DNA of 34,004 nucleotides. Source: an uncultured Bacilli bacterium. GTDB lineage: Bacteria; Bacillota_I; Bacilli_A; RF39; UBA660. The stretch spans positions 1-34,004 of the forward strand of contig CANQFO010000003.1 in NCBI GenBank assembly GCA_947599755.1, in the 5' to 3' direction. A program made the translations under genes and the position numbers. Below the pieces are notes generated by a model. That model was not told where the DNA came from. It did not search any database and saw nothing but the letters and a program-made list of their open reading frames with translations. Below, piece after piece: positions 13,620-30,688 of this stretch. Position 1 is the first letter of the stretch; the number at the start of each line of letters is the position of its first letter.

Positions 13620-13637
13620 AGGAAAGGAGTATATCAA

Positions 13638-16600
13638 ATGATGAAGAAATGGAAATTAAAATTTTTCCTAGCAATTGTTTTCTTTTTAGGATTTTCTAGC
13701 CCTGTATTTGCCAAAGAAATGACTTTAGAAGAATTAGGAAAATTAATTGATGAAAAACAACCTAATGCAAATCATGCTTTTGTTATTGGAAAATATGTTT
13801 TTACCTCACTATATGAAAATAACGGAAAAAAAGGTTTAGATACTAAAGATATTATGTTAGCAGCAAGAAGTATAGAAACTTTAACGGGTGATGGGGAAAT
13901 TCATACCGATAAAATTTATGAAAAAATGAAAATTCACCAAATCACGAAAAAAATGAGTTCTGACTGGAAAAGCCATACTTGGGAGAAAGAAAGCGATTAT
14001 GTTGGTGGAGGAGAAGCTCCAGATACTTATCAAATTCGCTATATTGATTATCAATTTATTCCAGAGGAAACAAAGGCTAAAGTTGAATTGACAAATTCTA
14101 ATGATGAAAAATATAAAAAAATAATTGAAGAGGATTTAAAATTTACAGGTGGTAACAGTAGTAATAGCCAAAATTTACAATTATCAGACGATTGGAAATT
14201 AACTGGGTTATTATTAAAAAATACTACAGTCGATGATAGCATTTTTAAAGATGATGAAAAGACCGGATATTATTTTGCTCTTTCTATAAAAGCACCTAAA
14301 GCTACAGATAAAACAATCATTAAGGTAAAAGGAGCAAAAAAAGAGAAAAAATTTACCTATGATAAATTTGATATAAAAAATGGAGAAGATAACACTGATC
14401 CTGGTATTGCTTTTCTATATTCTGTTGATCCAAAGAAAAAAGATGATAAGAAAAAATTAGAAATTACTGTCGATTATGATGGAGAAGATAGCCAAGAATA
14501 TGCTCCTACTATTTATACCATAGATTATAGTGGAATAACTTTTCAAGAAGATTCAAGAGTAGAAAATATTGGTTTAGGATCAGAAAATGCAACTGATCAA
14601 GATAAGAATATAATAAAAGATTGGGGCTATGAAGAAAATAAAAATAAGAGTCTAACTCTTTCTCTTGATGATCAGAATCATTTCACCTATAACCTAAAAG
14701 GTACTTTAATCGAACAAATGCTAAATAGTGCAAAAGCTTTTGGAGAAAAAAATAAATTAGGATATTATTTTGATTTCACCTTTGTTTTACCAGAAGGCAG
14801 CAATAAAAATAATGTAAAAATTAGTCAAGTAAATGATGAGCAAGGAAGCAAGGAAACAAAAATTTTTCAACCTGATGAGTTTGATGAAAAAAATAATTTA
14901 ACTATATTATTTAGATTTAAACCAGAAACCACAAAATGTACAAATCATTGCAAAATATATTATAAAGTGGATTTAGATGGAGAAGGAAAGAAATATTTAC
15001 CAGTTATTTATAGCATAGATTATAGTGGAGTAACCTTTGAAAAATCATCTGTCTTTACTGTTGAAGGAATAACTGATGAAGATAAAGATGAATATGATAA
15101 TTCAAATTGGTATGATACAAATAATGGTTATTCTGTTCAAGTAGAAAAAGATCAGAATGAAGAAAAAAAATATCATATAACAGGTGTTTTACCAATATTT
15201 AATGATGAAGAAAAGGATTTTAACTCTCTACATACTTTTGACACAGAAAAAGAACTATATTATTTAGGCTTACTATTAAAGTTAAGCAATGCTGAAAAAA
15301 TACAATCTGAGAACAGTGAAGCCATAACCGTTAAATTTTTCCATAATGATGGTAGTTCTGATGATCAATTCTTAAAAGTAACAGCTGATGATTTTGAAAG
15401 TTCTCATAAACTTTACCTATTAAAAGCATTATGCGAGATTGCTGCTGATTCGAGTAGTACAATTCCTGATTCAGAAAAAATCTTTACCATTACTGTAGAT
15501 TTAGATGGAGATGAAGAGACATATGCTCCATATACGGTTACTATTGATTGGAGTGGGTTAGTATTACAAAAAAAATCTAGTGGAAATTCTAAAAATTATG
15601 ATGTAGTTCTATCTGAAGAGGATTTGGGTACTGATACAAAAGCCAAAGAAGAATTAAAAAGTTATGGATATCAATATGAAAATGATAGGGATATATCTCT
15701 AAAAGAGGGAACAAAAGACTTAACAGGTACGATTAAAGAACAAAAATTAAAAGAAACAGCAGGATTTAAAGATGACAATAAAGGTTATTTTGTCCCAATA
15801 AAAGTTGAATTTCCTGGAAAAGATAATCCAAAATTAAAAGATTATGCAGACAAATGGACACTAATACTAAATACCGAAGATAATCGGACATTTGAATATC
15901 AGCCAAGTAGTGAAGAATATCAACAAGGATGGGTAATGGTATTATTTAAAATTTATCGTGATACTAAGACAGAAATCAAATACCAAATTGACTTTGATGG
16001 ATTACCTAAAGATGGTAAAGGATATAATTTTGTTCCTGAAGATTATCAAATTAGTTATGCTGATTTAGCATTCAAAACAGCAAATCAGATAAAATTTAAC
16101 TATACAGATAAAAACGGAAAACAACAATCAGAAACAGCCATAATTTATGAAGGAGAACAATTAGGTCATGATTTAGCAGCAACTCAAAATATGGATTATC
16201 GTACTTTTGATGGTTGGTATAACCAAAGTGATAAAGTAGAAGTAGAAAAAGTATTAGAAAAAGATGAAGATTTAGAGTTAACTGCTCATTGGAAAATTAA
16301 TTCAGAAAAATTTATATCCGAAGTAATTACAGATTTAAATAGTTCAGATGAGACTTATTCTAATGATTTTTCAAAAAAATTTAACTTAACTCAAAATGAT
16401 GAAAATAAGAAAGAAATTACCATAAATATTGAGAGAGCAAAAGTACCATTAACAGAATTAGCAGAAACCAGTATTCCTGGAGCAATTGCTTATGCCTTAC
16501 AAACTGAGGAAATTAAAGATATTACTTTAACGGCTGGAAAAAGCAATTCTGTAACATTTAAAAAAGATTATACAAATAATTCCCAAACCTATGATAAAAC

Positions 16601-18947
16601 TGCTGATAGAGATGAAAAATTATTAGGAAAAGAAGGTACTTTATTAAAGAAAGAAATTATTAAAGGAACAAAAGAAATCTTCAATAAAGAATTAGAAGAA
16701 AAAGAAGAAACTGCTACTTTAGATCAATTAGAATATATGGATAAATCATTTTCTATTCAAATAGGAACTGTTGATAATACCGTTACATTAGTAAAAGATG
16801 ATGGAACAGAAATCAAAGACGGTACAGATAAAACATATACATTTAAATTTGACTCTGATTTTGTTGTCGTAGATGAAGAGGAAGAACTTGGTGCTACGGA
16901 TATCCGTACCGCATTAACTAGTGCAAAAAATTATCATACCATTTATGTTGATGGTAATCTAAACTTAAGTAAAACATTAGATATTAATGCTACAGATGAA
17001 GTAGTGATAAAACCAGTAGATGCTACTTCAAAAAACAAAACAATAACCGTTTCTAATCAAGATTATGCAATTGATGTAAAATCAGGAACAGTAAATATTT
17101 CTAATTTAAAAATTACTGGAGGAAAAAAAGCAGAATTAAGAATTGAAGAAGGAGCAAATGTTACTGTTGATAATATTGATGTTTCTGGTAATATTACTCC
17201 AGTGGAATCAAAAGATGAAAAAATGCATGCTGGAATTATTGTAAGAGGTAATTTAACGATAAATTCTAAAATAACAAATGAAAACGAGAAATATGGATTA
17301 CCTACCGTTGCTACAGTTACTAGTTATTCCTATCCAACTGATAAAGAGTTAGAAGGAGAAAGACATGATGATGAAACGTTAGCTAAAGCTGCTACGATAA
17401 ATGATCAATCTAAAATGGCAAAAAATGATAGATATCATATCGTTAAGAGAAATGAAGAAACACATATTGATTTATTTATAGAGACATATTATGGTTCTTT
17501 CTACTATAATAATCCAAATAATGCTAAAATTTATTTAGCCGGAATTATCGATCAGGAAAAAGCTTCTCCAGGACCTTATGATTATATTAAAATTTATTAT
17601 TATGATGAAGATTTTGATTTAAGTGGTTTGGGTTATCAAGAGAATCAAACACCTACTGGTGTTTCTCCAGAAAAAGTCTTTAAAAACTTTACATTGAATG
17701 ATAAGGTAATCAAGGGTGATGGTTCAGAAAAAGTTCAAAATATATTGAATGTTGCAGATACTGCTCATATCGTTGTTAATTATCAACCAAAACCATCCGC
17801 AACTCTTACCTTCCAAAATACTGATGGATTAGAGGGAAAAGAAAATCGTGTTTCTGGAACTTTAAAAACACAAAGCGAAGATGGCAAATACTATATACCA
17901 ATTACGTTAAAATCAGAAAAATTTCAAGATAATCAAACAACAATTCAAATTACTAATCCAAATGGAGAGTCAAAAACTTATACTTATAGTTCAACGAATG
18001 AAGATGGAATTGTTGCGAAAATCAGTACAGATAAAACGATTCATTTAAATTTAGAAGCAATTAAATCTTCTCAAATAACTGGAGAATATGGTAAAGTTTA
18101 TACCATTATCCTTGATATAGATGGAAATGATACCAAGTATCAAGAAGAAACTTATACCGTTGATTATAGCCAAGTTACTACTTTGGAAGAAATCATTAAT
18201 ACCGCTGCAGAAAAAACAGAAGCAGCAAATAGTTTAACTTATACGAATAATAGCAAGGTTAAAGATAATGAAATGAAATATACTTATCGCTATGATAAAG
18301 AAAAAGGATTAACCTTATATAATGACGAAGAATATTCTTTTCAAATTAATAAAGTAGATTCTACTCATGAAGGAACAGCTAGCCTTGTATTGAGAAAATT
18401 AACTGATTCATATCCAGGATCAGATGAAAGACCAACAATTAATGGTTGGGAATTTAGTAATCAAATTCAACGAATAGGCATGGGAATTTATGAATTACAA
18501 TTATTTATTGATATGAAAAATAATCGTGCAATTAAAGACGTAGTGAAAAAAGAAAATCATACATACGAAGTTACTTTAGATGGGAAAAGTGTAGCCTCTT
18601 GGTTAAATATTTCTTATATTGGTAATCCTGCAAAGGGCAATAATCCAACAACGGATAATCATCAAGAAATAGAAGATACAGTAAAATTAACTGTAGTATT
18701 GGACGAAAAAGATCAATACGTTAAAAGTTTTAAAACCAATCAAAACTTTGCGATTAATGATACCTATCCAGATAATCATATCGATGTTACCATTAATCAG
18801 ATTAATGAAACAACGATTGATGATCCATATACAAAATTAGGAAAAGGTAGTAAACTTACGAAAGAAGAAATCATGGAATTTTATCAGAAAGTTATCCAGT
18901 GGCGTAAAGACCACAATGATGTAGAGATAGCTGGAACAGCTGAGTAA
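13638..18947 (+). CDS. Giant secreted multidomain protein (1769 aa) with five copies of a beta-rich repeat (tandem period ~165-175 aa)
   Basis: Sec signal ending VFA|KE. Repeated GYYF...D[YLFI]DG...Y.[IV]DYS motifs, an InlB-B-like unit (FDGWY...LTAHW), and a possible beta-helix segment. No LPXTG or C-terminal TM. Confidence 0.82.
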   Translation: MMKKWKLKFFLAIVFFLGFSSPVFAKEMTLEELGKLIDEKQPNANHAFVIGKYVFTSLYENNGKKGLDTKDIMLAARSIETLTGDGEIHTDKIYEKMKIHQITKKMSSDWKSHTWEKESDYVGGGEAPDTYQIRYIDYQFIPEETKAKVELTNSNDEKYKKIIEEDLKFTGGNSSNSQNLQLSDDWKLTGLLLKNTTVDDSIFKDDEKTGYYFALSIKAPKATDKTIIKVKGAKKEKKFTYDKFDIKNGEDNTDPGIAFLYSVDPKKKDDKKKLEITVDYDGEDSQEYAPTIYTIDYSGITFQEDSRVENIGLGSENATDQDKNIIKDWGYEENKNKSLTLSLDDQNHFTYNLKGTLIEQMLNSAKAFGEKNKLGYYFDFTFVLPEGSNKNNVKISQVNDEQGSKETKIFQPDEFDEKNNLTILFRFKPETTKCTNHCKIYYKVDLDGEGKKYLPVIYSIDYSGVTFEKSSVFTVEGITDEDKDEYDNSNWYDTNNGYSVQVEKDQNEEKKYHITGVLPIFNDEEKDFNSLHTFDTEKELYYLGLLLKLSNAEKIQSENSEAITVKFFHNDGSSDDQFLKVTADDFESSHKLYLLKALCEIAADSSSTIPDSEKIFTITVDLDGDEETYAPYTVTIDWSGLVLQKKSSGNSKNYDVVLSEEDLGTDTKAKEELKSYGYQYENDRDISLKEGTKDLTGTIKEQKLKETAGFKDDNKGYFVPIKVEFPGKDNPKLKDYADKWTLILNTEDNRTFEYQPSSEEYQQGWVMVLFKIYRDTKTEIKYQIDFDGLPKDGKGYNFVPEDYQISYADLAFKTANQIKFNYTDKNGKQQSETAIIYEGEQLGHDLAATQNMDYRTFDGWYNQSDKVEVEKVLEKDEDLELTAHWKINSEKFISEVITDLNSSDETYSNDFSKKFNLTQNDENKKEITINIERAKVPLTELAETSIPGAIAYALQTEEIKDITLTAGKSNSVTFKKDYTNNSQTYDKTADRDEKLLGKEGTLLKKEIIKGTKEIFNKELEEKEETATLDQLEYMDKSFSIQIGTVDNTVTLVKDDGTEIKDGTDKTYTFKFDSDFVVVDEEEELGATDIRTALTSAKNYHTIYVDGNLNLSKTLDINATDEVVIKPVDATSKNKTITVSNQDYAIDVKSGTVNISNLKITGGKKAELRIEEGANVTVDNIDVSGNITPVESKDEKMHAGIIVRGNLTINSKITNENEKYGLPTVATVTSYSYPTDKELEGERHDDETLAKAATINDQSKMAKNDRYHIVKRNEETHIDLFIETYYGSFYYNNPNNAKIYLAGIIDQEKASPGPYDYIKIYYYDEDFDLSGLGYQENQTPTGVSPEKVFKNFTLNDKVIKGDGSEKVQNILNVADTAHIVVNYQPKPSATLTFQNTDGLEGKENRVSGTLKTQSEDGKYYIPITLKSEKFQDNQTTIQITNPNGESKTYTYSSTNEDGIVAKISTDKTIHLNLEAIKSSQITGEYGKVYTIILDIDGNDTKYQEETYTVDYSQVTTLEEIINTAAEKTEAANSLTYTNNSKVKDNEMKYTYRYDKEKGLTLYNDEEYSFQINKVDSTHEGTASLVLRKLTDSYPGSDERPTINGWEFSNQIQRIGMGIYELQLFIDMKNNRAIKDVVKKENHTYEVTLDGKSVASWLNISYIGNPAKGNNPTTDNHQEIEDTVKLTVVLDEKDQYVKSFKTNQNFAINDTYPDNHIDVTINQINETTIDDPYTKLGKGSKLTKEEIMEFYQKVIQWRKDHNDVEIAGTAE

Positions 18948-18974
18948 AAGGTGTGATATTTATACCACACCTTT
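18947..18974 (+). terminator. Stem-loop after the giant gene (terminator or mRNA stabiliser)
   Basis: aaaggtgtg / cacaccttt perfect 9-bp stem with only a short U tail. Confidence 0.55.
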
Positions 18975-18997
18975 ATCTAATGAAATGAGGAGTAGAC

Positions 18998-19540
18998 ATG
19001 AAAAAAATAATAATAATTTTTCTTGCAATATTTTTATGTATTCCAATTGTATCCAATGCTGTTGCTACTAATTCATCTAGTTTTGCAAAAGAAAAGATTT
19101 ATATACTATATGATAGTAGTAATTGTAAAGAATGCAATCAATATAAAGAAACATTGGAAGAATATTATAAAAACGATAATCGCGTATATATAGAATATAT
19201 CTCTGTTGATAAGAATCAAGAATTAGTAAAAAAGATCAAAAAAAATTTAAATATCAAGCGTGATAAATTTCCCATAACTATTATTGGTACTACTTATTTT
19301 AAGGGATTCAATCAGAGAATAATGAAAAAAATAAAAAGGGCGGTTCAAAATTATCAAAAAGAAGATAAATATTGTGATATTGTTGATAGTATAAAAAATC
19401 AAAAAAATATAGAAAAATGTCTAAAAGATAATCAAGGAATAAATCAAGAAAATCACATGATTATCGTAATTGGATTAATTATAATAGCAATCTTGATTTG
19501 TTTAATAAGTTTTAAGAAAAAGAAAATGAAATCTAAGTAA
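18998..19540 (+). CDS. Exported thioredoxin/glutaredoxin-fold protein with C-terminal TM anchor
   Basis: Signal peptide, IYILY..SNCKEC (CxxC), cis-Pro-like FPITIIG...F.GF, then a C-terminal TM and basic tail. Confidence 0.75.
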   Translation: MKKIIIIFLAIFLCIPIVSNAVATNSSSFAKEKIYILYDSSNCKECNQYKETLEEYYKNDNRVYIEYISVDKNQELVKKIKKNLNIKRDKFPITIIGTTYFKGFNQRIMKKIKRAVQNYQKEDKYCDIVDSIKNQKNIEKCLKDNQGINQENHMIIVIGLIIIAILICLISFKKKKMKSK

Positions 19541-19689
19541 ATATTCATTTTCTTTTTCTACATGAATGAAAAATAAAAAGCTAAGATTTGACAAGTCTTC
19601 AAATTAAAACAGTTAAAAGATAAAGAGAAAACAAACAAAGTTTTAGATAAAAAGAGGAAGAAGAATAATAAAATATTATTGAATAAAAG

Positions 19690-19718
19690 TTGCATAAAGT
19701 TGAAAAATAATATATAAT
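19690..19718 (+). promoter_or_regulatory. sigmaA promoter of the SipW operon
   Basis: TTGCAT-17 bp-TATAAT. Confidence 0.7.
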
Positions 19719-19788
19719 CTAATTAAAGATAAGAAAAAAAACTAGATATTCTTATCCAAAGAAAAATTAGAAAGTAGAGGAAAGATTT

Positions 19789-20334
19789 ATGCAAAAAGAT
19801 CGAAAAATAAGAGCAATGGCCATTACGATTATAGGAATAGCAGTCATAGGATTATCAATTGGATATGCAACACTAAGTCAAGTATTAAATATTTCAGGTA
19901 CAGCAAACATAAAAGGTCAAAATTGGGATGTAGTATTTGAGGATTTAAAAGAACCAACAGCCAATGACGGATTAGTAGGATCAGCAAAAGGAGTGAGTGC
20001 AAGCTTAACCACCACAACCCTAAGTTTTGCAGCAGAATTAAGCTTACCAGGAGATGCAATTACTTATCGCTTCAAAGTAGCAAACAACGGAACAATTGAT
20101 GCAATTTTAAGTGAAGTACCAGTATTATCTGGATTATCAGAAGCTCAAGCTCAAAATGTAGTATATGAATTTACTTATGAAGATGGAACACTAATTAAAG
20201 CAAACGATGAATTACCAGCAGGAGAAACAAAAAATTTAAAATTAGTAATTAAATTTGATGCAGATGCAACAACAGTATCAGAAGAAGATAAACAATTATC
20301 TTTATCAACTACAATGAACTATGTTCAAAAATAA
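19789..20334 (+). CDS. TasA/camelysin-like protein with SipW-type signal peptide (putative major fibre subunit)
   Basis: Hydrophobic leader ending SIGYA|TLS, and PGDAITYRFKVANNGTIDA motif. Adjacent to sipW. Confidence 0.72.
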   Translation: MQKDRKIRAMAITIIGIAVIGLSIGYATLSQVLNISGTANIKGQNWDVVFEDLKEPTANDGLVGSAKGVSASLTTTTLSFAAELSLPGDAITYRFKVANNGTIDAILSEVPVLSGLSEAQAQNVVYEFTYEDGTLIKANDELPAGETKNLKLVIKFDADATTVSEEDKQLSLSTTMNYVQK

Positions 20335-20358
20335 AAAAGAATAAAGTGGTGACCAGCA

Positions 20359-21498
20359 ATGAAAAAAAGTCAAATAAAAATGTTGGGATTAGAAAGTGTC
20401 ATAATGATTGGGTTAATCATCAATGCACTTTTCATAAAAAAATTCGAACTAACAAATTTGGCCAATATCATTGTATGGTCATTCATTGTTCTATGCACGA
20501 AATATTTAATTGGAATCGAAAAAGACAAAAGTCTAAATCGAATAGATACAATTCAAATTATTTTTATTTATACCTTTTTATATCTATTAATCATGTATTT
20601 AATTGGAGTAGGAGTAGGATTTAACCGAAATCCATATAAAATTACAATACTGAATATCATAAAAAATATTACCCCTTTATTAATAGTGATTACAGCTCAA
20701 GAAATATTTCGATTTAATATTACAATAAAAGGAAAAGATAATAAATTGGTAATTACAGGATTAATTTTACTCTTTATTAGTATGGATATCATGTTTAATT
20801 TTAAATATTATAGTTATACAAGTGGATTAGAAATTTTTGAAGTAATTGGAATTTTAATTTTACCAAGTATAGCAGATAATTTGATATTAACCTTTATTAC
20901 TTCAAAAAGTGGATATTCCCCTACGATTATATATCGACTAATGTTAGCAAGTAGAAATTACTTAATACCAATTATTCCAGATTTAGACATTTATCTAGAA
21001 TCAGTATTAAAAATTGTTTTTCCAACAATTTTATTTTTGAAATTTAATACAATATATGCAAAAAACAAATTTACACTAGCACCAAGAAACCAATTAGGAA
21101 AACATATCATGACAACAACAATGACTGCAGTAGCAATAGCATTTATCGCTCTAGTTTCAGGAATATTTAGATATTATGCAATTTCCATTGGATCAGAATC
21201 AATGGAACCAAACATAAAAAAAGGAGATGCCGTAGTTTTAGAAAAAATAGAAAAAGTAGATAGAGAAAAAGAAGTAAAGAAAGGAGTCATTATTGCTTAT
21301 CGCCATGGTAAGAAAGTAATTGTTCATAGAATTAATAAAATAGAAGAAAAAAATGGAGAAAAGCAAATCACAACCAAAGGAGACAATAACGAAGTAGTAG
21401 ATAATTGGATAGTAGAAGAATCTGATATATTGGGAATAGTAAGAGCAAAAATTCCCGTAATTGGATGGCCATCCGTATGGTTAAGTGAAAGATTATAA
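20359..21498 (+). CDS. sipW: SipW-type (S26B, Ser-His) signal peptidase I fused to a multi-pass N-terminal membrane domain
   Basis: GSESMEP.IKKGD, IVHRI, TKGDNN..VD, IPVIGW. About 250 aa of hydrophobic helices precede the catalytic domain. Confidence 0.85.
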   Translation: MKKSQIKMLGLESVIMIGLIINALFIKKFELTNLANIIVWSFIVLCTKYLIGIEKDKSLNRIDTIQIIFIYTFLYLLIMYLIGVGVGFNRNPYKITILNIIKNITPLLIVITAQEIFRFNITIKGKDNKLVITGLILLFISMDIMFNFKYYSYTSGLEIFEVIGILILPSIADNLILTFITSKSGYSPTIIYRLMLASRNYLIPIIPDLDIYLESVLKIVFPTILFLKFNTIYAKNKFTLAPRNQLGKHIMTTTMTAVAIAFIALVSGIFRYYAISIGSESMEPNIKKGDAVVLEKIEKVDREKEVKKGVIIAYRHGKKVIVHRINKIEEKNGEKQITTKGDNNEVVDNWIVEESDILGIVRAKIPVIGWPSVWLSERL

Positions 21499-21512
21499 AA
21501 GGAGGAAATAGT

Positions 21513-22565
21513 GTGAAACAAAAGCAAAAAAAGAAATTCATTATCAATAAAAAATGGATACCAAACATAGTTTTATTAGGAATATCAATTATCTTAACGA
21601 TTGCTTTTGCACTTTTTTCTCTAATGAAAAATAGAGTAGAAAAAGTAACATACACAGAAAATAGTAATATAGACTACATGGTATGTTTAAAAAAGAATAA
21701 TTATTTCAAAGAAAAATGTTTAGACAATACCAAAAATTCTTATGTTGCAGATATCTTAGATTATATAACACTAGATTTTTCTTATTTCATGAACGTATCA
21801 ACAAAAATAGATCAAGAATATAACTATAATATTACAGCCAAAATTTTAGCAACAGATAAAGAAGATTCTAGTAAAGTAGTATACAACAAAACAACAACTT
21901 TAGTAGAAAATAAAAAAGTAAACGACAATTCTAAATCAATTGCTAATATGAAAGAACAAGTAAAAATTAATTATGCTGATTACAATGATATAATTACCAA
22001 TTTTAAAAAAGACTATGTTTTAGCACTCGATGCCAATTTAATTATTACGATGAATATTAATTACAAAGGAAAATATAGCAAAGATTTTGATGAAATCAAC
22101 ACAGCAAAACAAATGAGCGTAACAATTCCTCTTTCTGAACAAATGATTACCATAACAACCAGTACAAAAAAAGAAAATAAAACAAGTATCTTAGAGAAAA
22201 AAGAAAAAGGAAAAACAGATAAAATAATAATGAAAGGATTAATTGGATTAGATGCTATTTTAGCAGGAATATTGATTTTTTCCATTATGAAAAGCCTTCC
22301 ATATAAAAAAGAATATCTAAAAGAATTAGAAAAAATATTAAAAGAATATGATCGAGCCATCGTATCAACAAACAATTTACCAAGCTTTAAAAATCATAAT
22401 CAAATAGAAGTACCAACTTTTGAAGAATTACTTGATGCAAGAGAAAACTTAGAACGACCAATATTATATTACCAATCTAAAACAGAAGATAAAGTAATTT
22501 TCTGCATTATGGCAAACAAAGAAGTCTATATTTATACACTAGAAGCAAAGGATAAAAAATCATGA
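21513..22565 (+). CDS. DUF5305-like membrane protein
   Basis: GTG start with GGAGG. TM, large extracellular domain, TM, then cytoplasmic tail EVPTFEELLDA...ERPILY. This layout is typical next to sipW. Confidence 0.68.
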   Translation: MKQKQKKKFIINKKWIPNIVLLGISIILTIAFALFSLMKNRVEKVTYTENSNIDYMVCLKKNNYFKEKCLDNTKNSYVADILDYITLDFSYFMNVSTKIDQEYNYNITAKILATDKEDSSKVVYNKTTTLVENKKVNDNSKSIANMKEQVKINYADYNDIITNFKKDYVLALDANLIITMNINYKGKYSKDFDEINTAKQMSVTIPLSEQMITITTSTKKENKTSILEKKEKGKTDKIIMKGLIGLDAILAGILIFSIMKSLPYKKEYLKELEKILKEYDRAIVSTNNLPSFKNHNQIEVPTFEELLDARENLERPILYYQSKTEDKVIFCIMANKEVYIYTLEAKDKKS

Positions 22566-23794
22566 AAAAAAGAAGAGAAAGTTTAAAAATAAAACTTGCA
22601 AGACTACAACCATATCAAATAAGAAACATAGTAGTAATAGCAATGAGTTTAATTTTTATTACTACTTTATCCGTAGGATATTCCATTTTATCGCAAACAT
22701 TAAAGATAGAAGGAGAAGTAGCATTACGTGCTCAAAAAGATATACGAATTCAAAAAATTGGAGAATTTAAATCCACAAATGAAGGATATGATATTTATAA
22801 TCCAAAATATGATACCAACAGCATTACCACAAATATTGCTCTACCAAATATAGATTCAACAGTTACCTATACAGTAGAAATTAAAAACAATAAAAATATT
22901 GCTATGGATGTAACCGATATAGAAAAAAAAGCTTATAATAATGATAATATAATCTATGAATTCTCAGGAATGCATATAGGATATATATTATATCCAAATA
23001 CAACCACAACTTTTACCATCACGTTTAAATATCCAGAAGCAACAACAATTCTACCAGAAGAAAAAAGATTAGGAGCAAACATTGTTTTTACATTCGAACA
23101 ACATAAAGAACCACAAACTGAACAACCAAAAGAATATATTATAGATGAAAATATATTAAATTTAAGTGGAGAAGAAAGAAACGAAAACAATCTATGGCTA
23201 GATAAAGAAAACAAAAAAGGAGCCAAATTAGAAAAAGTAATCTATAATGAAACAAAAAAAGCTTACCAATTTAGTAATGAATCATATGCAATAATAGAAG
23301 AACAAACAATCCCAGAAAATAATAATTTTACAATGGAAATTTATTTTTCATATCCAAATGATATCGAACAAAATCAAGAGCAAACAATTATCTATAAAGA
23401 AAGTAAAGAGAAAAATTTTAGTGATTTTGGAATATTTGCAAAAAAAATGGACAATAAAAAAATGCTAGTTTTAACTTATATCGATCCACTGAATCAGATA
23501 CCAAAAGAAATAATCATATCAGATCAAGCAAAAGAAAATGAACTTTATTCCATTCAAATTATAAAAGAAAATAACGAATGGAAAATTTATCAAGATGCAA
23601 TTTTAAAAAGAACTGAACAAATCAATGGAAATTTAAGAATTTCTAATACTCCATTACAAATTGGTAAAGGAAAAACAGAAAAACCATCTTTCTATCATGG
23701 AGATATTTATACAATTAGAGTATATAATAAAGCATTAACAAAAGAAGAAATCATAACCAATCAAAATTTAGATAATGACCTTTATAACAATTAA
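22562..23794 (+). CDS. SipW-substrate-like protein: TasA-like N-domain plus C-terminal LamG/concanavalin-A-like domain
   Basis: SVGYS|ILSQTLKIEG parallels 19789 (SIGYA|TLSQVLNISG). LP..DSTVTYTVEIKN. C-terminus FTMEI...LQIGK...FYHGDIYTIRVYNKALTKEEI. Confidence 0.75.
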   Translation: MKKRRESLKIKLARLQPYQIRNIVVIAMSLIFITTLSVGYSILSQTLKIEGEVALRAQKDIRIQKIGEFKSTNEGYDIYNPKYDTNSITTNIALPNIDSTVTYTVEIKNNKNIAMDVTDIEKKAYNNDNIIYEFSGMHIGYILYPNTTTTFTITFKYPEATTILPEEKRLGANIVFTFEQHKEPQTEQPKEYIIDENILNLSGEERNENNLWLDKENKKGAKLEKVIYNETKKAYQFSNESYAIIEEQTIPENNNFTMEIYFSYPNDIEQNQEQTIIYKESKEKNFSDFGIFAKKMDNKKMLVLTYIDPLNQIPKEIIISDQAKENELYSIQIIKENNEWKIYQDAILKRTEQINGNLRISNTPLQIGKGKTEKPSFYHGDIYTIRVYNKALTKEEIITNQNLDNDLYNN

Positions 23795-23850
23795 TACAAT
23801 TGAAAAAATATCAAAAAATGATATCATAAGAAAGAAACAAGAGGTGTAAA

Positions 23851-24408
23851 ATGTATTATAATAGGAAAAAAGAATTACTGAAAAACGGAATAATCATTAC
23901 AATAATTTTATTACTAGCAGTAATCTCTACTCATCATATATATTATAAATTTAAAGGAGAAAGAGATATCGACTATAATCTAAAATCATTAGAAATTATT
24001 TATCATGAAAAAAGTGCCAATAAAATTACATTAAATAAAATTACCCCTGTATCAGACGCAGTAGGATTATCTTCTAGAGCATATACTTTCACCGTAAAAA
24101 ACAATTTACAAAAGGAAATAGAATATGAAATTCTTCTAGAAGAAGATAAAGAAACCATTCAAAAAGAAGAATGCGGAGAATACCAAATTCCCAAAAATTT
24201 AATTAGGGTAGCAATAAAAGAAGAAAACGAAAAAGCACAAATCTATACAATGAGTGATTTAACAAAAAATAGTTTAAAAAAACAAATTCTAAAACCATTA
24301 AGACAAAAAGATTATACAATTAGAGTATGGACAAGTAATGGAAGTTCTCTACCAAACGGTTCAAATTTACATTATCACGGAATAATCAAGGTAAAAGAAA
24401 TAGAGTAA
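23851..24408 (+). CDS. Small exported/membrane-anchored beta-sandwich protein, possibly TasA-related
   Basis: SD GAGGTG. N-terminal TM, PVSDAVGL..RAYTFTVKN, YTIRVW. A possible own promoter is TTGAAA (23800)...TGaTATCAT (23819-23827). Confidence 0.65.
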   Translation: MYYNRKKELLKNGIIITIILLLAVISTHHIYYKFKGERDIDYNLKSLEIIYHEKSANKITLNKITPVSDAVGLSSRAYTFTVKNNLQKEIEYEILLEEDKETIQKEECGEYQIPKNLIRVAIKEENEKAQIYTMSDLTKNSLKKQILKPLRQKDYTIRVWTSNGSSLPNGSNLHYHGIIKVKEIE

Positions 24409-24426
24409 CAAGAAAAGGTGATTGTA

Positions 24427-24873
24427 ATGAATATAGATTTAACCCCATTATATAACAGAACACAAAAAGAAATAGAAATAAACAATACATACCAAATTCC
24501 CCAAAGTTATTATCAAAACAGTACAGTAAAGAAAATAAAAGATTTAAAAGTAAAAGCAAAGATATCTCTTTTAGATTCCGATGAAAAAGAAGAACCAAAA
24601 GAATATATTGAAGCAAGGATAAAAGGAATTTTAATATTAGAAGATTCTATCTCCTTAGAAAACATAGAATATCCATTTTCTATAGATTATGACGATATTT
24701 TAGAAGAAAATTGTAAAAAAAATGAAAATACACTTGATATATTTCAATTTTTATGGGAAAATATTGTACTAGAGATCCCCTTACAATTTACTAAGGTAGA
24801 AGATCTCAGTAAATTTCATGGGGATGGATGGAAATTAATTAGCGAAGATGAATTAGAAACAACTAAGAATTAA
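24427..24873 (+). CDS. yceD: YceD/DUF177 family protein
   Basis: LDIFQFLWENIVLEIP...GDGWKLISEDE, immediately upstream of rpmF (conserved synteny). SD AAGGTGA favours ATG 24427 over GTG 24418. Confidence 0.85.
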   Translation: MNIDLTPLYNRTQKEIEINNTYQIPQSYYQNSTVKKIKDLKVKAKISLLDSDEKEEPKEYIEARIKGILILEDSISLENIEYPFSIDYDDILEENCKKNENTLDIFQFLWENIVLEIPLQFTKVEDLSKFHGDGWKLISEDELETTKN

Positions 24874-24910
24874 TTGAAAGAAATCAAAGACGATGAAAAG
24901 GAGTGATAAT

Positions 24911-25123
24911 ATGATGAAATTAAACATTCAAATGTTCGCAGTACCTTTCCGTAAAGTATCAAAAACAAGAAAAAGATTAAGAAGAAGTCATAATGCTATG
25001 GAAATACCAGGAATGACAAAATGTCCTACATGTGGAGAAATGATTAAACCACATAGAGTATGTAAAAATTGCGGAAATTACAAGAAAAAACAAATTATAG
25101 AACCAAAAGAGAAAACAGTATAG
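24911..25123 (+). CDS. rpmF: 50S ribosomal protein L32 (Zn-ribbon type) with N-terminal extension
   Basis: [18 protein letters not shown]...CPTCG...[22 protein letters not shown] (24898-24906) places the start at ATG 24911 or 24914. Confidence 0.96.
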
Positions 25124-25145
25124 AACTAAAAATAGTTCTTTTTTT
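25122..25145 (+). terminator. Rho-independent terminator of rpmF
   Basis: agaacta-aaaa-tagttct followed by a T run. Confidence 0.75.
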
Positions 25146-25207
25146 ATGATGAAAAAAGAAAATAAAATATCAAGAAAAAATCTTCTCACTTTCTAAAACC
25201 ATTCATC

Positions 25208-25236
25208 TTGCGTCAATAACCAATCAATTATATAAT
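25208..25236 (+). promoter_or_regulatory. sigmaA promoter of addBA
   Basis: TTGCGT-17 bp-TATAAT. Confidence 0.65.
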
Positions 25237-25251
25237 AAAGATGGTGATAAA

Positions 25252-27609
25252 ATGTTAGAAAAAAAACAAGAAGAAACGATAATTGTATGTCCTAATGCAG
25301 AAAAAATAAAAATTTTAAATCAACAAGAACAAGAGCAAGAACTTCGTCAAATAAAATTTATGACCAAAGAAGAATTTAAACAATCCTATTTTTTTACATA
25401 TGATGCCAAAACATATGAATACTTATTAAAAAAATATCACTATAATTTAGATGTAATCAAAGTATACTTAGAAAATCTATATGTAATCGATGAACATAAA
25501 AATTACAAAAATGAAAAACTAAATTTTTTAAAAAATTTAAAAATAGAATTAAAAGAAAACAACTTACTAGAAGAAAATCATCTTTTTCAATCTTATATAA
25601 AAAATAGGAAAATTCAAGTAAAAAATTATTATGATTTAGAAAAATACGAAGAACAAATGCTAAAAACAACCCTATCTTACAAACCAAAGCCAATCTTGAA
25701 AGAAGTTATAGAGTACGAAACACTTGAAGAAGAAGTAAATGGAGTTTGTTTAAAAATTATACAATTATTAAAGCAAAAAGTAGATATAAATAAGATTTAC
25801 TTAACTAATATTACAGAAGAATATAATTATACAATAGAAAAACTATTTTCATATTATCATATTCCCATTAATCTAAAAACCAATACATCAATTTATGGAA
25901 CAAAAGTAGTAAAAGATTTTTTAAAAGAACAAAAATTAGATTTAGAAAATAAAAATAAAGCAAAAATCAATAAGAAATTGATTAATATATTAGCAAAATT
26001 ATCAAATATTGAACAAGATTCAGAAGAATATAAAATTCTTTTAGAAGATGAACTAAAAAATACCCTATATAAGATGAAAAAATTTCAAAATGCCATACAA
26101 ATAAAAGATTTATACCAAGAAACATTTACTGATGATGAATATGTTTTCGTATTAGGATTTAATCAAGATGTATTACCAAAATTAGATAAGGATACAGATT
26201 ATATCAATGATGCAATAAAAGAAGAAGTACCCCTATATTCAACTAAAGAAAAAAATAAACGAAAAAATTTAGCATTAACAGAAATTTTAGGAAAAATTAA
26301 AAATTTATTTTTATCTTATAAATTATCCTCTCCATTTCAAACATTTTATCGTTCTAGCTTAATTAATGATCTAAATTTAAAAGTAATAAAAGAAGATCAA
26401 GAAACTTATACATATTCTAATCAATATAATAAATTAAGATTAGCCGAAAAACTAGATTTATATTATTTATACAATGAAATAGATCAATCATTAAAAACTT
26501 TGTATACACATTATCAAATTCCATATAAAAGCTATAAAAATGACTTTACAGGAATAAAAATAGATAAATACTTAGAAAACTTACCTTATCCTTTAAAATT
26601 ATCATATACATCATTAAATACCTATAATGAATGTAAATTTAAATATTACATAAAATATATTTTAAATCTAGAACCATATACAAAAACCTTTGCTACTTTT
26701 ATAGGATCTCTATATCATAAAATTTTATCTCTATATCAAAAAACAAATTTTAATTTTGAAGAAGAATATAACAAATACATAAAAGAACATGAGTTAACAT
26801 TAAAAGATAAATTATTATTAAAAAAGATTAAAAAAGATTTATTAAAATTAATTGATATATTGAACCAACAACAATTAATAACTGGATTTGATAATTTCTA
26901 TTTTGAAAAAAAAATAGAAATCCCAATTAAGCAAAGTATTTCAGTAATATTTACTGGATATATTGATAAAATTATGTATTATCAAAAAATAGAAGATACC
27001 TATTTTTCTATCATTGACTATAAAACAGGAACAATTGATACACATATTGAACCGATGAAATATGGACTACATATGCAATTACCAGTATATTTATATTTAA
27101 TTCATTATTCAAAAGTATTTTCTAATCCAATTTTTACAGGTATATATTATCAAAATATTTTATTTAATTACCCAACATGGAATAATAAAGACTTACAACA
27201 ACAAGAAAAAGAAAAATATATGCTTCAAGGTTATTCAACAGAAGACATTACAATTTTAGAAAAATTTGATTCAACTGTAGCAAAAAGTGAATACATAAAA
27301 AGCATGTCCTATAATGAAGAAAAAGGATTCGGAACATATAGTAAAATTTTAAATAATGACACACTATTTGAACTAATCCAATTTACCAAAAACCATATCG
27401 AAGAAAAAACAGAGCAAATATTAGCAGCTGATTTTAAAATTAATCCAAAAGTATATGATGGAAAAAATATATCTTGTGAATATTGTAAATTTAATGATTT
27501 ATGCTATAAAAAAGAAGCAGATATTACATATTTAGAAAAAGTAGAAGATTTATCATTTTTAGGAGGAACAGATCATGGCATGGACAAAGGAACAGCAACA
27601 AGCAATTGA
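25252..27609 (+). CDS. addB: AddB/RexB-like PD-(D/E)XK nuclease subunit with Fe-S staple
   Basis: LSYTSLNTYNECKFKYY, GSLYH, GYIDK...IIDYKTG, QLPVY, CEYCKFNDLC. Overlaps addA. Confidence 0.85.
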   Translation: MLEKKQEETIIVCPNAEKIKILNQQEQEQELRQIKFMTKEEFKQSYFFTYDAKTYEYLLKKYHYNLDVIKVYLENLYVIDEHKNYKNEKLNFLKNLKIELKENNLLEENHLFQSYIKNRKIQVKNYYDLEKYEEQMLKTTLSYKPKPILKEVIEYETLEEEVNGVCLKIIQLLKQKVDINKIYLTNITEEYNYTIEKLFSYYHIPINLKTNTSIYGTKVVKDFLKEQKLDLENKNKAKINKKLINILAKLSNIEQDSEEYKILLEDELKNTLYKMKKFQNAIQIKDLYQETFTDDEYVFVLGFNQDVLPKLDKDTDYINDAIKEEVPLYSTKEKNKRKNLALTEILGKIKNLFLSYKLSSPFQTFYRSSLINDLNLKVIKEDQETYTYSNQYNKLRLAEKLDLYYLYNEIDQSLKTLYTHYQIPYKSYKNDFTGIKIDKYLENLPYPLKLSYTSLNTYNECKFKYYIKYILNLEPYTKTFATFIGSLYHKILSLYQKTNFNFEEEYNKYIKEHELTLKDKLLLKKIKKDLLKLIDILNQQQLITGFDNFYFEKKIEIPIKQSISVIFTGYIDKIMYYQKIEDTYFSIIDYKTGTIDTHIEPMKYGLHMQLPVYLYLIHYSKVFSNPIFTGIYYQNILFNYPTWNNKDLQQQEKEKYMLQGYSTEDITILEKFDSTVAKSEYIKSMSYNEEKGFGTYSKILNNDTLFELIQFTKNHIEEKTEQILAADFKINPKVYDGKNISCEYCKFNDLCYKKEADITYLEKVEDLSFLGGTDHGMDKGTATSN

Positions 27610-30600
27610 TGAAGAAGGAAAAAATATCATTGTATCAGCTGGAGCAGGAAGCGGAAAAACCGCAGTATTAACAGAACGCGTAATAAGAAAAATAAAAACA
27701 GGAACCCATATCAATGAATTATTAATTTTAACATTTACCAATGCTGCCGCAGCAGAGATGAAATTTAGAATTAGAAAAGCCATTCAAGAAAATGTTGGAC
27801 TAGAAGAAGAATTAAATTTAATTGATAGTGCCTACATTACAACTTTCGACTCATTTTCTTTATCAATAGTAAAAAAGTATCATACAAAATTAAATATAAC
27901 CAATAAAATCAAAATAACAGATGAAGTAATAATAGATTTAGCAAAAAATAAAATTTTAGACCAAATTATGGAAGAAAACTATTTATCTCCAAAACAAAAT
28001 TTTACAAAATTAATAGAAGATTTTTGTTTGAAAGATGATCTAGAATTAAAAAAAAGTATTCTAAATATATATAAAAAAATAGAATTGAGATATGATAAAG
28101 AGAAATATTTAGAAACATATATAAATAATTATTATCAAGAAAAAAATTTAGATAAATTAACCAAACAGTATTTAGAATTAATTGATACATATAGACAAAG
28201 AATTGCAACCTTACAAAAAGAACTAGAACTCTATTTTGATGGAGATTTTATAGCCAAAATAGAAGATAGTCTAAAAAAAATGCAACAAGCAAAAACCTAT
28301 GAAGAAATTAAAAATAATCTAGAAATAAAATTACCAGTAGCACCTAGAGGAAGTGAAAACCAAGGAAAAAAAATCAAATCAACGATTTCTGACTTAATCA
28401 AAGAAATCAAAAAACTTTGTATTTATCAATCAGAAGAAGAAATGAAAACAGAAATAAAAAGTACAAAAGAAAACGTAGAAACAATAATAAAAATCATCAG
28501 TGAATTAGATAGGCGATTAACCAAAAAAAAGCAACAAGAAGAACTTTATAATTTTACAGATATTTCTAGATTAGCAATTAAAGTAGTAGAAGAAAACAAA
28601 GAAATAAGAAATGAACTAACCAATAGTTTTAAAGAAATTTTAGTTGATGAATATCAAGATACATCAGATACTCAAGAGAAATTCATATCATTAATTGCGA
28701 ATAACAACGTTTATATGGTAGGAGATATTAAGCAATCAATTTATCGATTTAGAAATGCAAATCCATATATTTTTAAAAATAAATATGATGCATATAAAAA
28801 TAGTGATCAAGGAATAAAAATTGACTTAGTAAAAAATTTTCGTTCCAGAAAAGAAGTATTAGAAAATATAAATTTACTATTTAATCAATTTATGGATGAT
28901 GAAATAGGAGGAGCAGACTATAAATCATCTCATCAAATGATTTTTGGAAATATAGATTATTTAGAAAAGGGAAGCACCCCCCAAAATTATAACTTAGAAT
29001 TATTAACTTATGAAAATCCCGAAAAACAAATTCAAAAAGAAGAACAAGAAGCTTTTATCATTGGAAAAGATATTATAAAAAAAATGCAAGAAAAATTTTT
29101 AATTTTTGATAAAGAAGAAAAAAAATTACGATCAGTTCAGTATAGTGATTTTGTCATTTTATTAGATAAAAGTAAACATTTTGATTTATATAAAAAAATA
29201 TTTGAATATTTACATATCCCCCTTACTATTTTAAAAGATGAATCATTAAGAAAAGATCAAGATGTATTAGCAGTTAAAAATTTACTAAAATTATTAATCT
29301 GTATTAAAGAAAAAAAAGAAGATGAAGAATTTAAATATAGTTTTACTTCAGTATCAAGAAGTTTTCTATATCAAACAAAAGATGAAGAAATTTATGATGA
29401 TATCATGAATAATCAATATAAAGAAAGTCCACTTTATAAAAAATGTTTATCTCTAATTCAAGAAATAGATAATGTACCTGCTTCAATATTTTTAAATCAA
29501 GTATTAGAAAGTTTTCAATATGAAGAAAAATTAATTACAGTTGGTAAAGTAAAATCATTTAGAGTAAGAGCAGAATATTTTTACAATTTATGTAAAAATT
29601 TTGAAGAAAAAGGAAATACTATCTATGATTTTGTAGAATATTTAGAAAATATTTTTGAGAAGGATTATGATTTAAAATTTCAAATAAAGGAATCAAGTAG
29701 TAACAGTTGTAAAATCATGACTATTCACAAATCAAAGGGATTAGAATATCCAATTTGTTATTTCGCAGGTTTTTCCTCTAGATTTAATTTAAGTGAGTTA
29801 AAAGAAAAAATTTTATATGACAATGAATATGAAATAATAATTCCATCAGTAAAAGAATACTATAAAGATACAATCGCAAAAACCCTATTAAAAGAACAAA
29901 CAAAAAAAGAAGAAATATCAGAAAAAATAAGACTACTATATGTTGCTTTAACCAGAGCAAGAGAAAAAATAATCATAGTAGCACAAGAGCAAGAAGAACA
30001 AGAAGAACAATTAGATATGGTGCCAATAATAGAAAGAAAAAAATACAACAGTTTCTTAGCAATCCTAAAAAGTATATATAGTAGTATACTTCCATATCAA
30101 AAACAAGTAGAAATTCAAGTAACCAAGGAATACTTAAACTTAGAAAAAGGAATGCAAAAACAAAAAGCATTAACTCTAGATCAAGATTTACTAATAGTAA
30201 AAGAATTAGAAATTTCTCCAAAAGAAGTAGAAGAAAAAAGTTATTCCAAAAACATTCTTCATATGATATCAAAAGAAGAAAATGACATGATGAATTTTGG
30301 AACAAAAATACATGAAATTTTAGAACAAATTGATTTTAAAGATTCCTCATGGAAAAAAGAAAAAATTTCTCCCCAAATCAAAGAAAAAATTGAAAAATTT
30401 CTAAATACAAAATTAATTCAAGAAAATATAGAAGAAAAGATCTATAAAGAATATGAATTTACAACGAAAGAAGACAATGAAAATACCCATGGAATAATAG
30501 ATTTATTAATTGAAAAAAAAGATAAATTAATCATTATAGACTACAAATTAAAAAATATAGAAGATGAAAACTATGATAAACAACTAAATGGATACCGAGA

Positions 30601-30688
30601 AGTCATGAAGAAAAAAACAAATAAGAAAGTTGAATGCTATTTATATTCTATATTAGAAGAAAGATTTAGAAAAATAGAAGAAATATGA
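27575..30688 (+). CDS. addA: AddA/RexA UvrD-family helicase-nuclease
   Basis: SAGAGSGKT, TFTNAAAAEM, VDEYQD, GDIKQSIYRFR, NFRS, TIHKSKGLEYP, YVALTRA, GIIDLL...IDYK. Confidence 0.95.
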   Translation: MAWTKEQQQAIDEEGKNIIVSAGAGSGKTAVLTERVIRKIKTGTHINELLILTFTNAAAAEMKFRIRKAIQENVGLEEELNLIDSAYITTFDSFSLSIVKKYHTKLNITNKIKITDEVIIDLAKNKILDQIMEENYLSPKQNFTKLIEDFCLKDDLELKKSILNIYKKIELRYDKEKYLETYINNYYQEKNLDKLTKQYLELIDTYRQRIATLQKELELYFDGDFIAKIEDSLKKMQQAKTYEEIKNNLEIKLPVAPRGSENQGKKIKSTISDLIKEIKKLCIYQSEEEMKTEIKSTKENVETIIKIISELDRRLTKKKQQEELYNFTDISRLAIKVVEENKEIRNELTNSFKEILVDEYQDTSDTQEKFISLIANNNVYMVGDIKQSIYRFRNANPYIFKNKYDAYKNSDQGIKIDLVKNFRSRKEVLENINLLFNQFMDDEIGGADYKSSHQMIFGNIDYLEKGSTPQNYNLELLTYENPEKQIQKEEQEAFIIGKDIIKKMQEKFLIFDKEEKKLRSVQYSDFVILLDKSKHFDLYKKIFEYLHIPLTILKDESLRKDQDVLAVKNLLKLLICIKEKKEDEEFKYSFTSVSRSFLYQTKDEEIYDDIMNNQYKESPLYKKCLSLIQEIDNVPASIFLNQVLESFQYEEKLITVGKVKSFRVRAEYFYNLCKNFEEKGNTIYDFVEYLENIFEKDYDLKFQIKESSSNSCKIMTIHKSKGLEYPICYFAGFSSRFNLSELKEKILYDNEYEIIIPSVKEYYKDTIAKTLLKEQTKKEEISEKIRLLYVALTRAREKIIIVAQEQEEQEEQLDMVPIIERKKYNSFLAILKSIYSSILPYQKQVEIQVTKEYLNLEKGMQKQKALTLDQDLLIVKELEISPKEVEEKSYSKNILHMISKEENDMMNFGTKIHEILEQIDFKDSSWKKEKISPQIKEKIEKFLNTKLIQENIEEKIYKEYEFTTKEDNENTHGIIDLLIEKKDKLIIIDYKLKNIEDENYDKQLNGYREVMKKKTNKKVECYLYSILEERFRKIEEI

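Follow-up and report, generated by a model that had tools for sequence, protein, structure and literature searches.

Why does the gene for ribosomal protein L32 (bL32) in an uncultured Bacilli bacterium encode nine residues ahead of the point at which the protein normally begins, and what would become of them? The gene, rpmF, lies in a stretch of DNA of 34,004 nucleotides (contig CANQFO010000003.1 of assembly GCA_947599755.1), referred to here as the window. A first-pass annotation of the window proposed that the extension is a pro-peptide of the type that the cysteine protease Prp removes from ribosomal protein L27 in Bacillota. Comparative evidence from related genomes now supports a second ribosomal protein with a Prp-type pro-peptide well. 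It appears probable that the bL32 leader is cleaved by Prp, in which case bL32 would be the second ribosomal Prp-type pro-protein.

The extension can be read directly from the gene (Table 1). The rpmF product carries MMKLNIQMF before AVPF, the canonical L32 start, and its residues 10-64 align with positions 1-55 of the 56-position Pfam model PF01783 (Ribosomal_L32p), at 83.9 bits against a cut-off of 21.3. The Pfam model begins exactly at AVP (Ala10), and the nine preceding residues are therefore extra, as had been claimed. The last leader codon, for Phe, occupies 24935-24937, and the Ala-Val-Pro codons that open the core occupy 24938-24946. Two start candidates, ATG 24911 and ATG 24914, lie behind the sole Shine-Dalgarno (SD) site. 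A further in-frame ATG at 24893 lies 5' of this site. No SD precedes the internal ATG at 24932, also in frame, whose product would begin MF-AVP, leaving an extra Phe. The first-pass reading of the start region, in which the only good SD serves ATG 24911/24914, is confirmed by these positions.

Table 1. The rpmF locus and its adjoining features, in window coordinates
Feature	Position	Strand	Basis or detail
yceD-like gene (DUF177)	24418-24873	+	ORF; Pfam YceD E 2.7e-05, 24.6 bits, curated cut-off 33.2
Shine-Dalgarno site AAGGAGTGA	24898-24906	+	GGAG at 24900-24903, 7 nt from ATG 24911
rpmF (bL32 gene)	24911-25123	+	ORF translation, 70 aa from ATG 24911
Leader, putative pro-peptide	24911-24937	+	P1 Phe, P2 Met, P3 Gln, P4 Ile, P5 Asn, P6 Leu
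Predicted Prp cleavage site, Phe9-Ala10	24937-24938	+	Analogy with the F-A site of L27 (PMC9405229, in part)
Predicted mature bL32, 61 aa, CxxC...CxxC zinc ribbon, stop TAG 25121-25123	24938-25123	+	PF01783 and translation
AT-rich hairpin (AGAACT / AGTTCT) then T-run, 3' of rpmF	25122-25146	+	Read from sequence

A single Ribosomal_L32p match was found in the window's genome, so that rpmF is single-copy, and it stands in a yceD-rpmF arrangement. The usual partner of rpmF is yceD. Here the gap between the yceD-like gene and rpmF is 37 nt. The YceD name is tentative because the Pfam score falls below the curated cut-off, and the gene may be either a divergent YceD or misnamed. Promoter-like sites around rpmF were not above shuffled sequence (five against a mean of 6.7 in shuffles). 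The hairpin 3' of rpmF is possibly a weak terminator; a terminator scan of 24200-25400 returned 0 sites, the hairpin being missed because its stem has too few G-C pairs. Downstream of rpmF, the region 25252-30688 encodes an AddB-like PD-(D/E)XK nuclease (785 aa) and an AddA/UvrD-type helicase (1037 aa). On the other side, 5' of yceD, the genes over 12276-24408 encode a series of proteins that are probably exposed at the surface or secreted. The series includes a Big_2/Flg_new repeat protein (447 aa), a 1769-aa ORF without a Pfam match, an S24-type peptidase-like protein (379 aa), a DUF5305 protein (350 aa), a Laminin_G_3 protein (410 aa), and a 185-aa ORF without a match.

The extension and its SD had been expected to recur in relatives if the leader mattered, and they do. 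The leader was present in 120 of 120 homologues among the matches listed (65-91% identical), in the form M(M/L)xL(D/N)IQ(L/M/F)F before AVP. Likewise, among the best 80 of 462 confirmed loci, taken from species-representative genomes, all 80 combined the leader with a GGAG/GAGG-type SD placed 5-9 nt 5' of the leader ATG. The record titles of leader-bearing organisms name uncultured Bacilli, Tenericutes, Mycoplasmatota, and Mollicutes, and they come from the guts of human, mouse, rabbit, and ruminants; this group with small genomes probably corresponds to GTDB order RF39.

Residue-by-residue comparison was made on 103 distinct leader loci, the other 8 of 111 listed loci being duplicates or not recovered by the parser. 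Counting back from the predicted cut, P1 was Phe and P3 was Gln at every locus, P6 was Leu at 102, P5 was Asp, Asn, or Glu at all 103, and P4 was Ile at 96 and Leu at 7. Lys occupied P7, straight after one or two initiating Met residues, in 89 of the 103 L32 leaders, which are 8-9 aa long. P2 was the variable position, with Met at 63 loci and Leu, Arg, or Ala at 40. General initiation at the internal ATG is excluded because these 40 loci have no ATG at P2, and the first-pass argument against a start at 24932 is thereby extended from this genome to its relatives. The codons carry a further signature. Over P6-P1, mean entropy was 0.03 for second and 0.65 for third codon positions, and that of the upstream non-coding bases ranged from 0.2 to 1.8, mostly about 1 or more. 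Furthermore, the frame was open from the leader ATG through the predicted site into the L32 core in all 103 recovered loci. By this comparison, the leader is translated and under purifying selection at the peptide level.

A few variants were seen. Among database proteins, P3 is Glu in P0051, His in P0082, and Thr in P0140; these could be sequencing errors, uncleavable forms, or partners of Prp variants of changed specificity. P1' (the residue after the cut) is Ala in most leader-bearing proteins and Gly in G435, G442, and P0140. In the one clade to which these belong (L286 of G435, L192 of G442, and P0140), AVP is replaced by GPLPARR, GALPARR, or GALPFRR, and the mature L32 would start with Gly, with Gly at P1'.

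How closely does the leader resemble a Prp substrate? The determinants of Prp binding are P1 Phe, P3 Gln, P4 Ile/Leu, P5 Asp/Asn, P6 Leu, and P1' Ala (PMC9405229 and PMC9261936, both in part), and every one of these published determinants is shown in the predicted leader. Of these, P3 Gln, Leu/Ile at P4 and P6, and Asn/Asp at P5 determine binding in the 7KLD complex. The S. aureus L27 leader that the first-pass annotation had quoted as the model, MLKLNLQFF'ASKK (a prime marks the cut), is given identically in PMC9405229 (in part). Replacement of P3 by Ala or Glu is reported to abolish cleavage by S. aureus Prp (PMC9261936, in part). Prp also needs small residues at P1'-P2' (PMC9405229, in part). 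In the window's L32 the P1' Ala is small, but it is followed by Val at P2' and Pro at P3', a departure from known Prp substrates that counts against the reading. Those substrates have Ser, His, Asp, or Thr at P2' (PMC9405229, in part), and the genome's own L27 has His there. Prp enzymes are reported to be highly specific, and the C. difficile enzyme did not cut an S. aureus-type substrate (PMC9261936, in part).

The protease and its known substrate are both encoded in the window's genome, an assembly of 1.15 Mb in 128 contigs with 27.9% G+C and 91.5% completeness. An rplU-prp-rpmA cluster, as the first-pass annotation anticipated, is present on contig 25, with a Prp match to PF04327 of 81.2 bits. 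The protein (100 aa; L002:1785-2084, minus strand) matches S. aureus Prp (4PEO/7KLD) with E 9.8e-11 and retains the equivalents of G21, H22, G29, D31, C34, and S38, so that the catalytic His/Cys dyad is intact. These six residues are catalytic or essential in S. aureus Prp (PMC9405229, in part). Across Prp of 71 family genomes, G21, H22, D31, and C34 were invariant and S38 was kept in 70. The L27 of the same genome begins MKFLKLDIQLF'AHHKGQGS, and the suggested comparison of the two leaders gives a close match, ..LKLDIQLF'A in L27 against ..MKLNIQMF'A in L32.

Further evidence comes from the rarity of the motif. A six-frame scan of the window's genome (2,297,060 codons) with the strict pattern [LFIMV][DNE][ILV]Q[LMFR]F[AGS] returned three matches, namely the L32 N-terminus, the L27 N-terminus, and residue 138 of a 440-residue open frame. 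With only three matches in so many codons, the pattern therefore exceeds chance. Matches to a looser motif (C21, C121, and others) were rejected as candidates; all fell inside proteins and none was N-terminal. A modelled complex of two Prp copies with L32 residues 1-40, supplied as alignments and run without controls, scored 0.04 against a mark of 0.32 and is counted neither for nor against binding.

If one protease cuts both proteins, do their leaders vary together? The two were compared in 27 genomes, 17 from the family survey described below and 10 further leader-bearing genera fetched afterwards. P4 was identical in the L32 and L27 leaders of 26 of the 27 (Ile/Ile in 19, Leu/Leu in 7). The pattern was first noticed on the 17 genomes and then recurred in 9 of the 10 new ones (3 of 3 with Leu, 6 of 7 with Ile). 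The sole mismatch, in G275 (L127, L297), pairs Ile at P4 of L32 with Leu at P4 of L27. P5 was uncorrelated, being the same in 13 of 27, and P7 of L27 leaders varies in genomes with an L32 leader.

Recent gene conversion from rpmA was considered as a source of the leader or of the P4 match and was rejected, since codon identity at identical residues was no higher within a genome (107/152, 0.704) than between genomes (2419/3503, 0.691) and since P5 was uncorrelated. The codons for P4 Leu often differ between the two genes, as with CTT and TTA in G184, and in G023, where both leaders have the rare Arg at P2, one gene uses AGA and the other CGT. The P4 match is more consistent with adaptation of two substrates to a single protease pocket than with copying of DNA. 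On the tree described below, the covariation reduces to 2-3 independent contrasts, all in the same direction (sign test p 0.5).

Prp itself also varies near its active site. Among 9 genomes with Leu at P4 of the L27 leader, 6 have Gly at Prp residue 35 (Gly36 in S. aureus), two positions past the catalytic Cys. Among 60 genomes with Ile at P4, 0 have Gly there, and all have Ser, Ala, or Phe. S. aureus Prp likewise has Gly at the equivalent residue, and its L27 leader has Leu at P4. Residue 35 may be an S4 specificity determinant, with a signal confounded by phylogeny.

The leader is confined to one family in the sample and is patchy within it. The DNA pattern [DN]xQxFAVP was found in 19 of 401 genomes of the class, 18 of them in the window's family and including the window's own genome, and the reversed-pattern control gave 0 matches. 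The one match outside the family (G353, L113) runs antisense in a histidine-kinase ORF, with no plus-strand ORF of at least 40 aa spanning the match, and was rejected as chance. Because this sole outside match was rejected, the leader occurs in 0 of 351 genomes from the 29 other families of the class sample. Among proteins, the best 150 of 1657 representatives of 50%-identity clusters (E up to 0.001) included 11 with the leader, all with family-like L32 cores. The others mostly began M-AVP, in line with the first-pass view of a typical L32, and the rest had a near variant or an apparent over-called start.

Within the family, one genome per genus was surveyed (n=61). Prp adjoins rpmA in all 61, and in 71 of 71 family genomes in a larger set. 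L27 was parsed in 59 of the 61, and each of these 59 has a ..Q.[FL]'A leader. L32 was found in 60 genomes, the exception being G003 (81% complete). The L32 leader was present in 17 of the 60 genera, and in the other 43 the start codon stands directly before AVP (40 ATG, 3 read as Val). The predicted product of the cut, AVPF..., equals what Met removal would leave at the L32 N-terminus in all 43 of these leaderless genera, which agrees with the earlier proposal that an F'A cut would recreate the canonical L32 N-terminus. A scar such as MF-AVP was seen in 0 of the 43. The function of the leader is dispensable, whatever it may be, because the leader is absent in 43 of 60 family genera, often in sister genera of those that have it.

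Sister genera, once aligned, differ cleanly by 7-9 codons located between ATG and GCN; SD and spacer are otherwise of the local type, and the leaderless sisters have the SD at the same distance before ATG-GCN. Phylogeny was estimated by maximum likelihood over 1269 columns of RpoB, L27, Prp, and L32 core (IQ-TREE, quick search under LG+G4); the tree is limited by 8 of the 61 genomes, which have no rpoB match and less than 20% of columns filled. In the window's genome (G000, C98), rpoB is cut by a contig end and leaves a 930-residue frame with a Pfam domain match to 1-246 of 373. To account for the leader, the tree needs at least 7 changes, of which 6 are imposed by branches with good support. 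When labels were shuffled the mean rose to 15.0 changes, and 0 of 500 shuffles came as low as 7. All 6 genera of the clade that holds the window's genome carry the leader, as do all 4 of a second clade, and each of these clades has support 100.

Did the leader arise once or repeatedly? With midpoint rooting, a gains-only history takes 7 events and a single gain entails 22 losses. In the sister family, no leader was found in the one genome examined (G025). Repeated gain, in about 6-7 clades, would be the more parsimonious history on this tree. Lateral transfer of a whole leader-bearing rpmF gene or of a long tract is not supported as the route, since each gene resembles its local clade in SD, spacer, and L32 core; very short tracts are possible.

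What would cleavage accomplish? The proposed sequence of events begins with translation of pro-L32 from ATG 24911 (or 24914), so that the leader would make up the first 9 (or 8) residues. The cognate Prp would recognise it via P1 Phe, P3 Gln, P4 Ile, P5 Asn, and P6 Leu and cut between Phe9 and Ala10, which would free an L32 with AVPF at its N-terminus. This form would insert into the 50S next to uL22. The N-terminal tail of bL32 is buried in the 50S, probably too much so for nine extra residues. L32 that kept the leader would not assemble properly, and its incorporation would depend on Prp as L27 maturation does. A leader that hindered insertion would hold assembly at the uL22/bL32 step until Prp acts. 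Residues 13-23 of bL32 contact bL20 and uL22 (PMC4881015, in part), which agrees indirectly with a buried tail. E. coli particles lacking uL22 and bL32 have H61 and domain IV misrouted and uL2 unbound (PMC11723945, in part).

Such gating of L32 by proteolysis is plausible. It is weakened because the distribution of the leader is patchy. A broader reading holds that the leader was gained repeatedly and tuned each time to the local Prp, so that Prp, instead of having one substrate, would be a recruitable N-terminal maturation system and the 50S would have a two-point checkpoint. This reading is put forward tentatively, as a speculation that is rather unlikely to hold in full. If true, it would mean that Prp controls both the insertion of L32, beside uL22 and the root of domain IV, and L27 at the peptidyl-transferase centre.

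Cleavage by Prp does not require a checkpoint. The leader might be a tolerated feature or one that acts in the mRNA, where an A/U-rich start with Lys as second codon could aid initiation, and Prp would then tidy up the product, its clean removal of the leader allowing the feature to persist. Points in its favour are the patchiness just described (17 of 60 genera, at least 7 changes, leaderless sisters), an insertion exactly between ATG and GCN with the SD unchanged, and the short L32 leaders of 8-9 aa with Lys at P7 in 89 of 103, whereas P7 varies in L27. On the other hand, purifying selection is strong on all Prp determinants in every lineage, although this is expected under both readings. 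Retention of the leader by all 6 genera of the window's clade and all 4 of the other, across RpoB-scale divergence, also argues against pure neutrality. Cleavage without a checkpoint is a possible but doubtful account.

It is also conceivable that the leader stays on mature L32 as a permanent N-terminal extension. Its removal is a prediction from sequence comparison, and bacterial L32 N-termini do vary by 1-3 residues (MG-AIAP.., MSICPKNK..). Against this, the extension copies the Prp motif at each position, stops exactly at F'A before AVP, and tracks the L27 leader at P4. Those extended L32s among the best 150 representatives that lack the motif resemble random over-called starts. A retained leader therefore looks improbable.

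Could a protease other than Prp remove it? A second L27-processing protease, Rrp, is described in S. pneumoniae TIGR4 (preprint 10.64898/2026.08.10.744006, in part), and an Rrp-like Ntn hydrolase or an unrelated peptidase might act on L32. However, Prp adjoins rpmA in every one of the 71 family genomes, and the leader retains the residues that bind the Prp pockets, so that such a protease has quite a small probability. An annotation artefact, with the true start at the in-frame ATG 24932 of the window's genome or with the leader region untranslated, is scarcely credible given the missing SD before that codon, its absence from 40 of 103 loci, near-invariant second and variable third codon positions, a frame open from the leader ATG into the core at all 103 recovered loci, and 0 of 43 leaderless genera with the Met-Phe that such a start would leave before AVP.

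Cleavage of the leader by Prp is the reading carried forward here. It bears first on annotation, because in leader-bearing genomes the annotated Met is probably not the start of mature L32, which would be AVP instead. If true, a second ribosomal client would widen what the enzyme controls. Work on Prp as a target for narrow-spectrum antibiotics presupposes that its essential task is to mature L27. Moreover, closely related genera that have or lack the leader form a natural experiment on why Bacillota make ribosomal proteins as precursors, a matter still called open in the Prp literature (PMC12324487, in part). Covariation of L27, L32, and Prp at P4 leads to testable hypotheses on how Prp specificity is encoded. 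The first-pass annotation had taken the L32 leader to be undescribed, and no report of it was found in full-text literature on Prp together with L32/bL32, where a passing mention in Wall 2015/2017 or in supplements is possible. The known or proposed Prp substrates given in PMC9405229 (in part) are L27, gp46 and gp47 of phage 80alpha, and FlhB; the part of that paper covered here mentions L32 once, as a tunnel-lining protein.

How does the L32 leader compare with known systems? Processing of an L32 precursor has a parallel in mitochondria. The m-AAA protease processes the precursor of bL32m (MrpL32), a member of the same protein family, and this step is needed for ribosome biogenesis (preprint 10.64898/2026.07.28.741247, in part). 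In that case, however, the removed segment is a mitochondrial presequence with no sequence relation to the Prp motif, and the enzyme is an unrelated membrane AAA protease. FlhB has a cellular N-terminus that mimics the L27 leader (B. subtilis MKLRVDLQFF'AG..), a proposal made on sequence alone (PMC9405229, in part). FlhB belongs to a membrane export gate and has no relation to the ribosome, whereas the L32 case is ribosomal and has the support of covariation. The scaffold protein gp46 and capsid protein gp47 of phage 80alpha likewise carry an L27-type leader on a protein other than L27 (..KFNLQFF'ADQS and ..KLNLQHF'ASNN) and are cut by the host Prp (PMC9405229, in part). These are phage structural proteins, whereas L32 is a ribosomal protein of the host.

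The bL27 pro-peptide, cleaved by Prp (MEROPS C108) in Bacillota and relatives, is the remaining comparison. It differs in its carrier, which is not bL32, and in the residues after the site, A(S/H)KK instead of AVPF. The L27 leader occurs in 59 of 59 parsed family genomes, in contrast to an L32 leader in 17 of 60 genera. Furthermore, L32 lies beside uL22 and the root of domain IV rather than at the peptidyl-transferase centre (PMC11723945, in part). The likenesses are several. Both leaders belong to a type of 8-12 residues with the pattern hydrophobic-D/N-I/L-Q-x-F'A, and the protease is encoded in the same genome. Cleavage gives, or for L32 is predicted to give, the N-terminus that other bacteria make directly, and both targets are 50S proteins whose N-terminal tail is extended.
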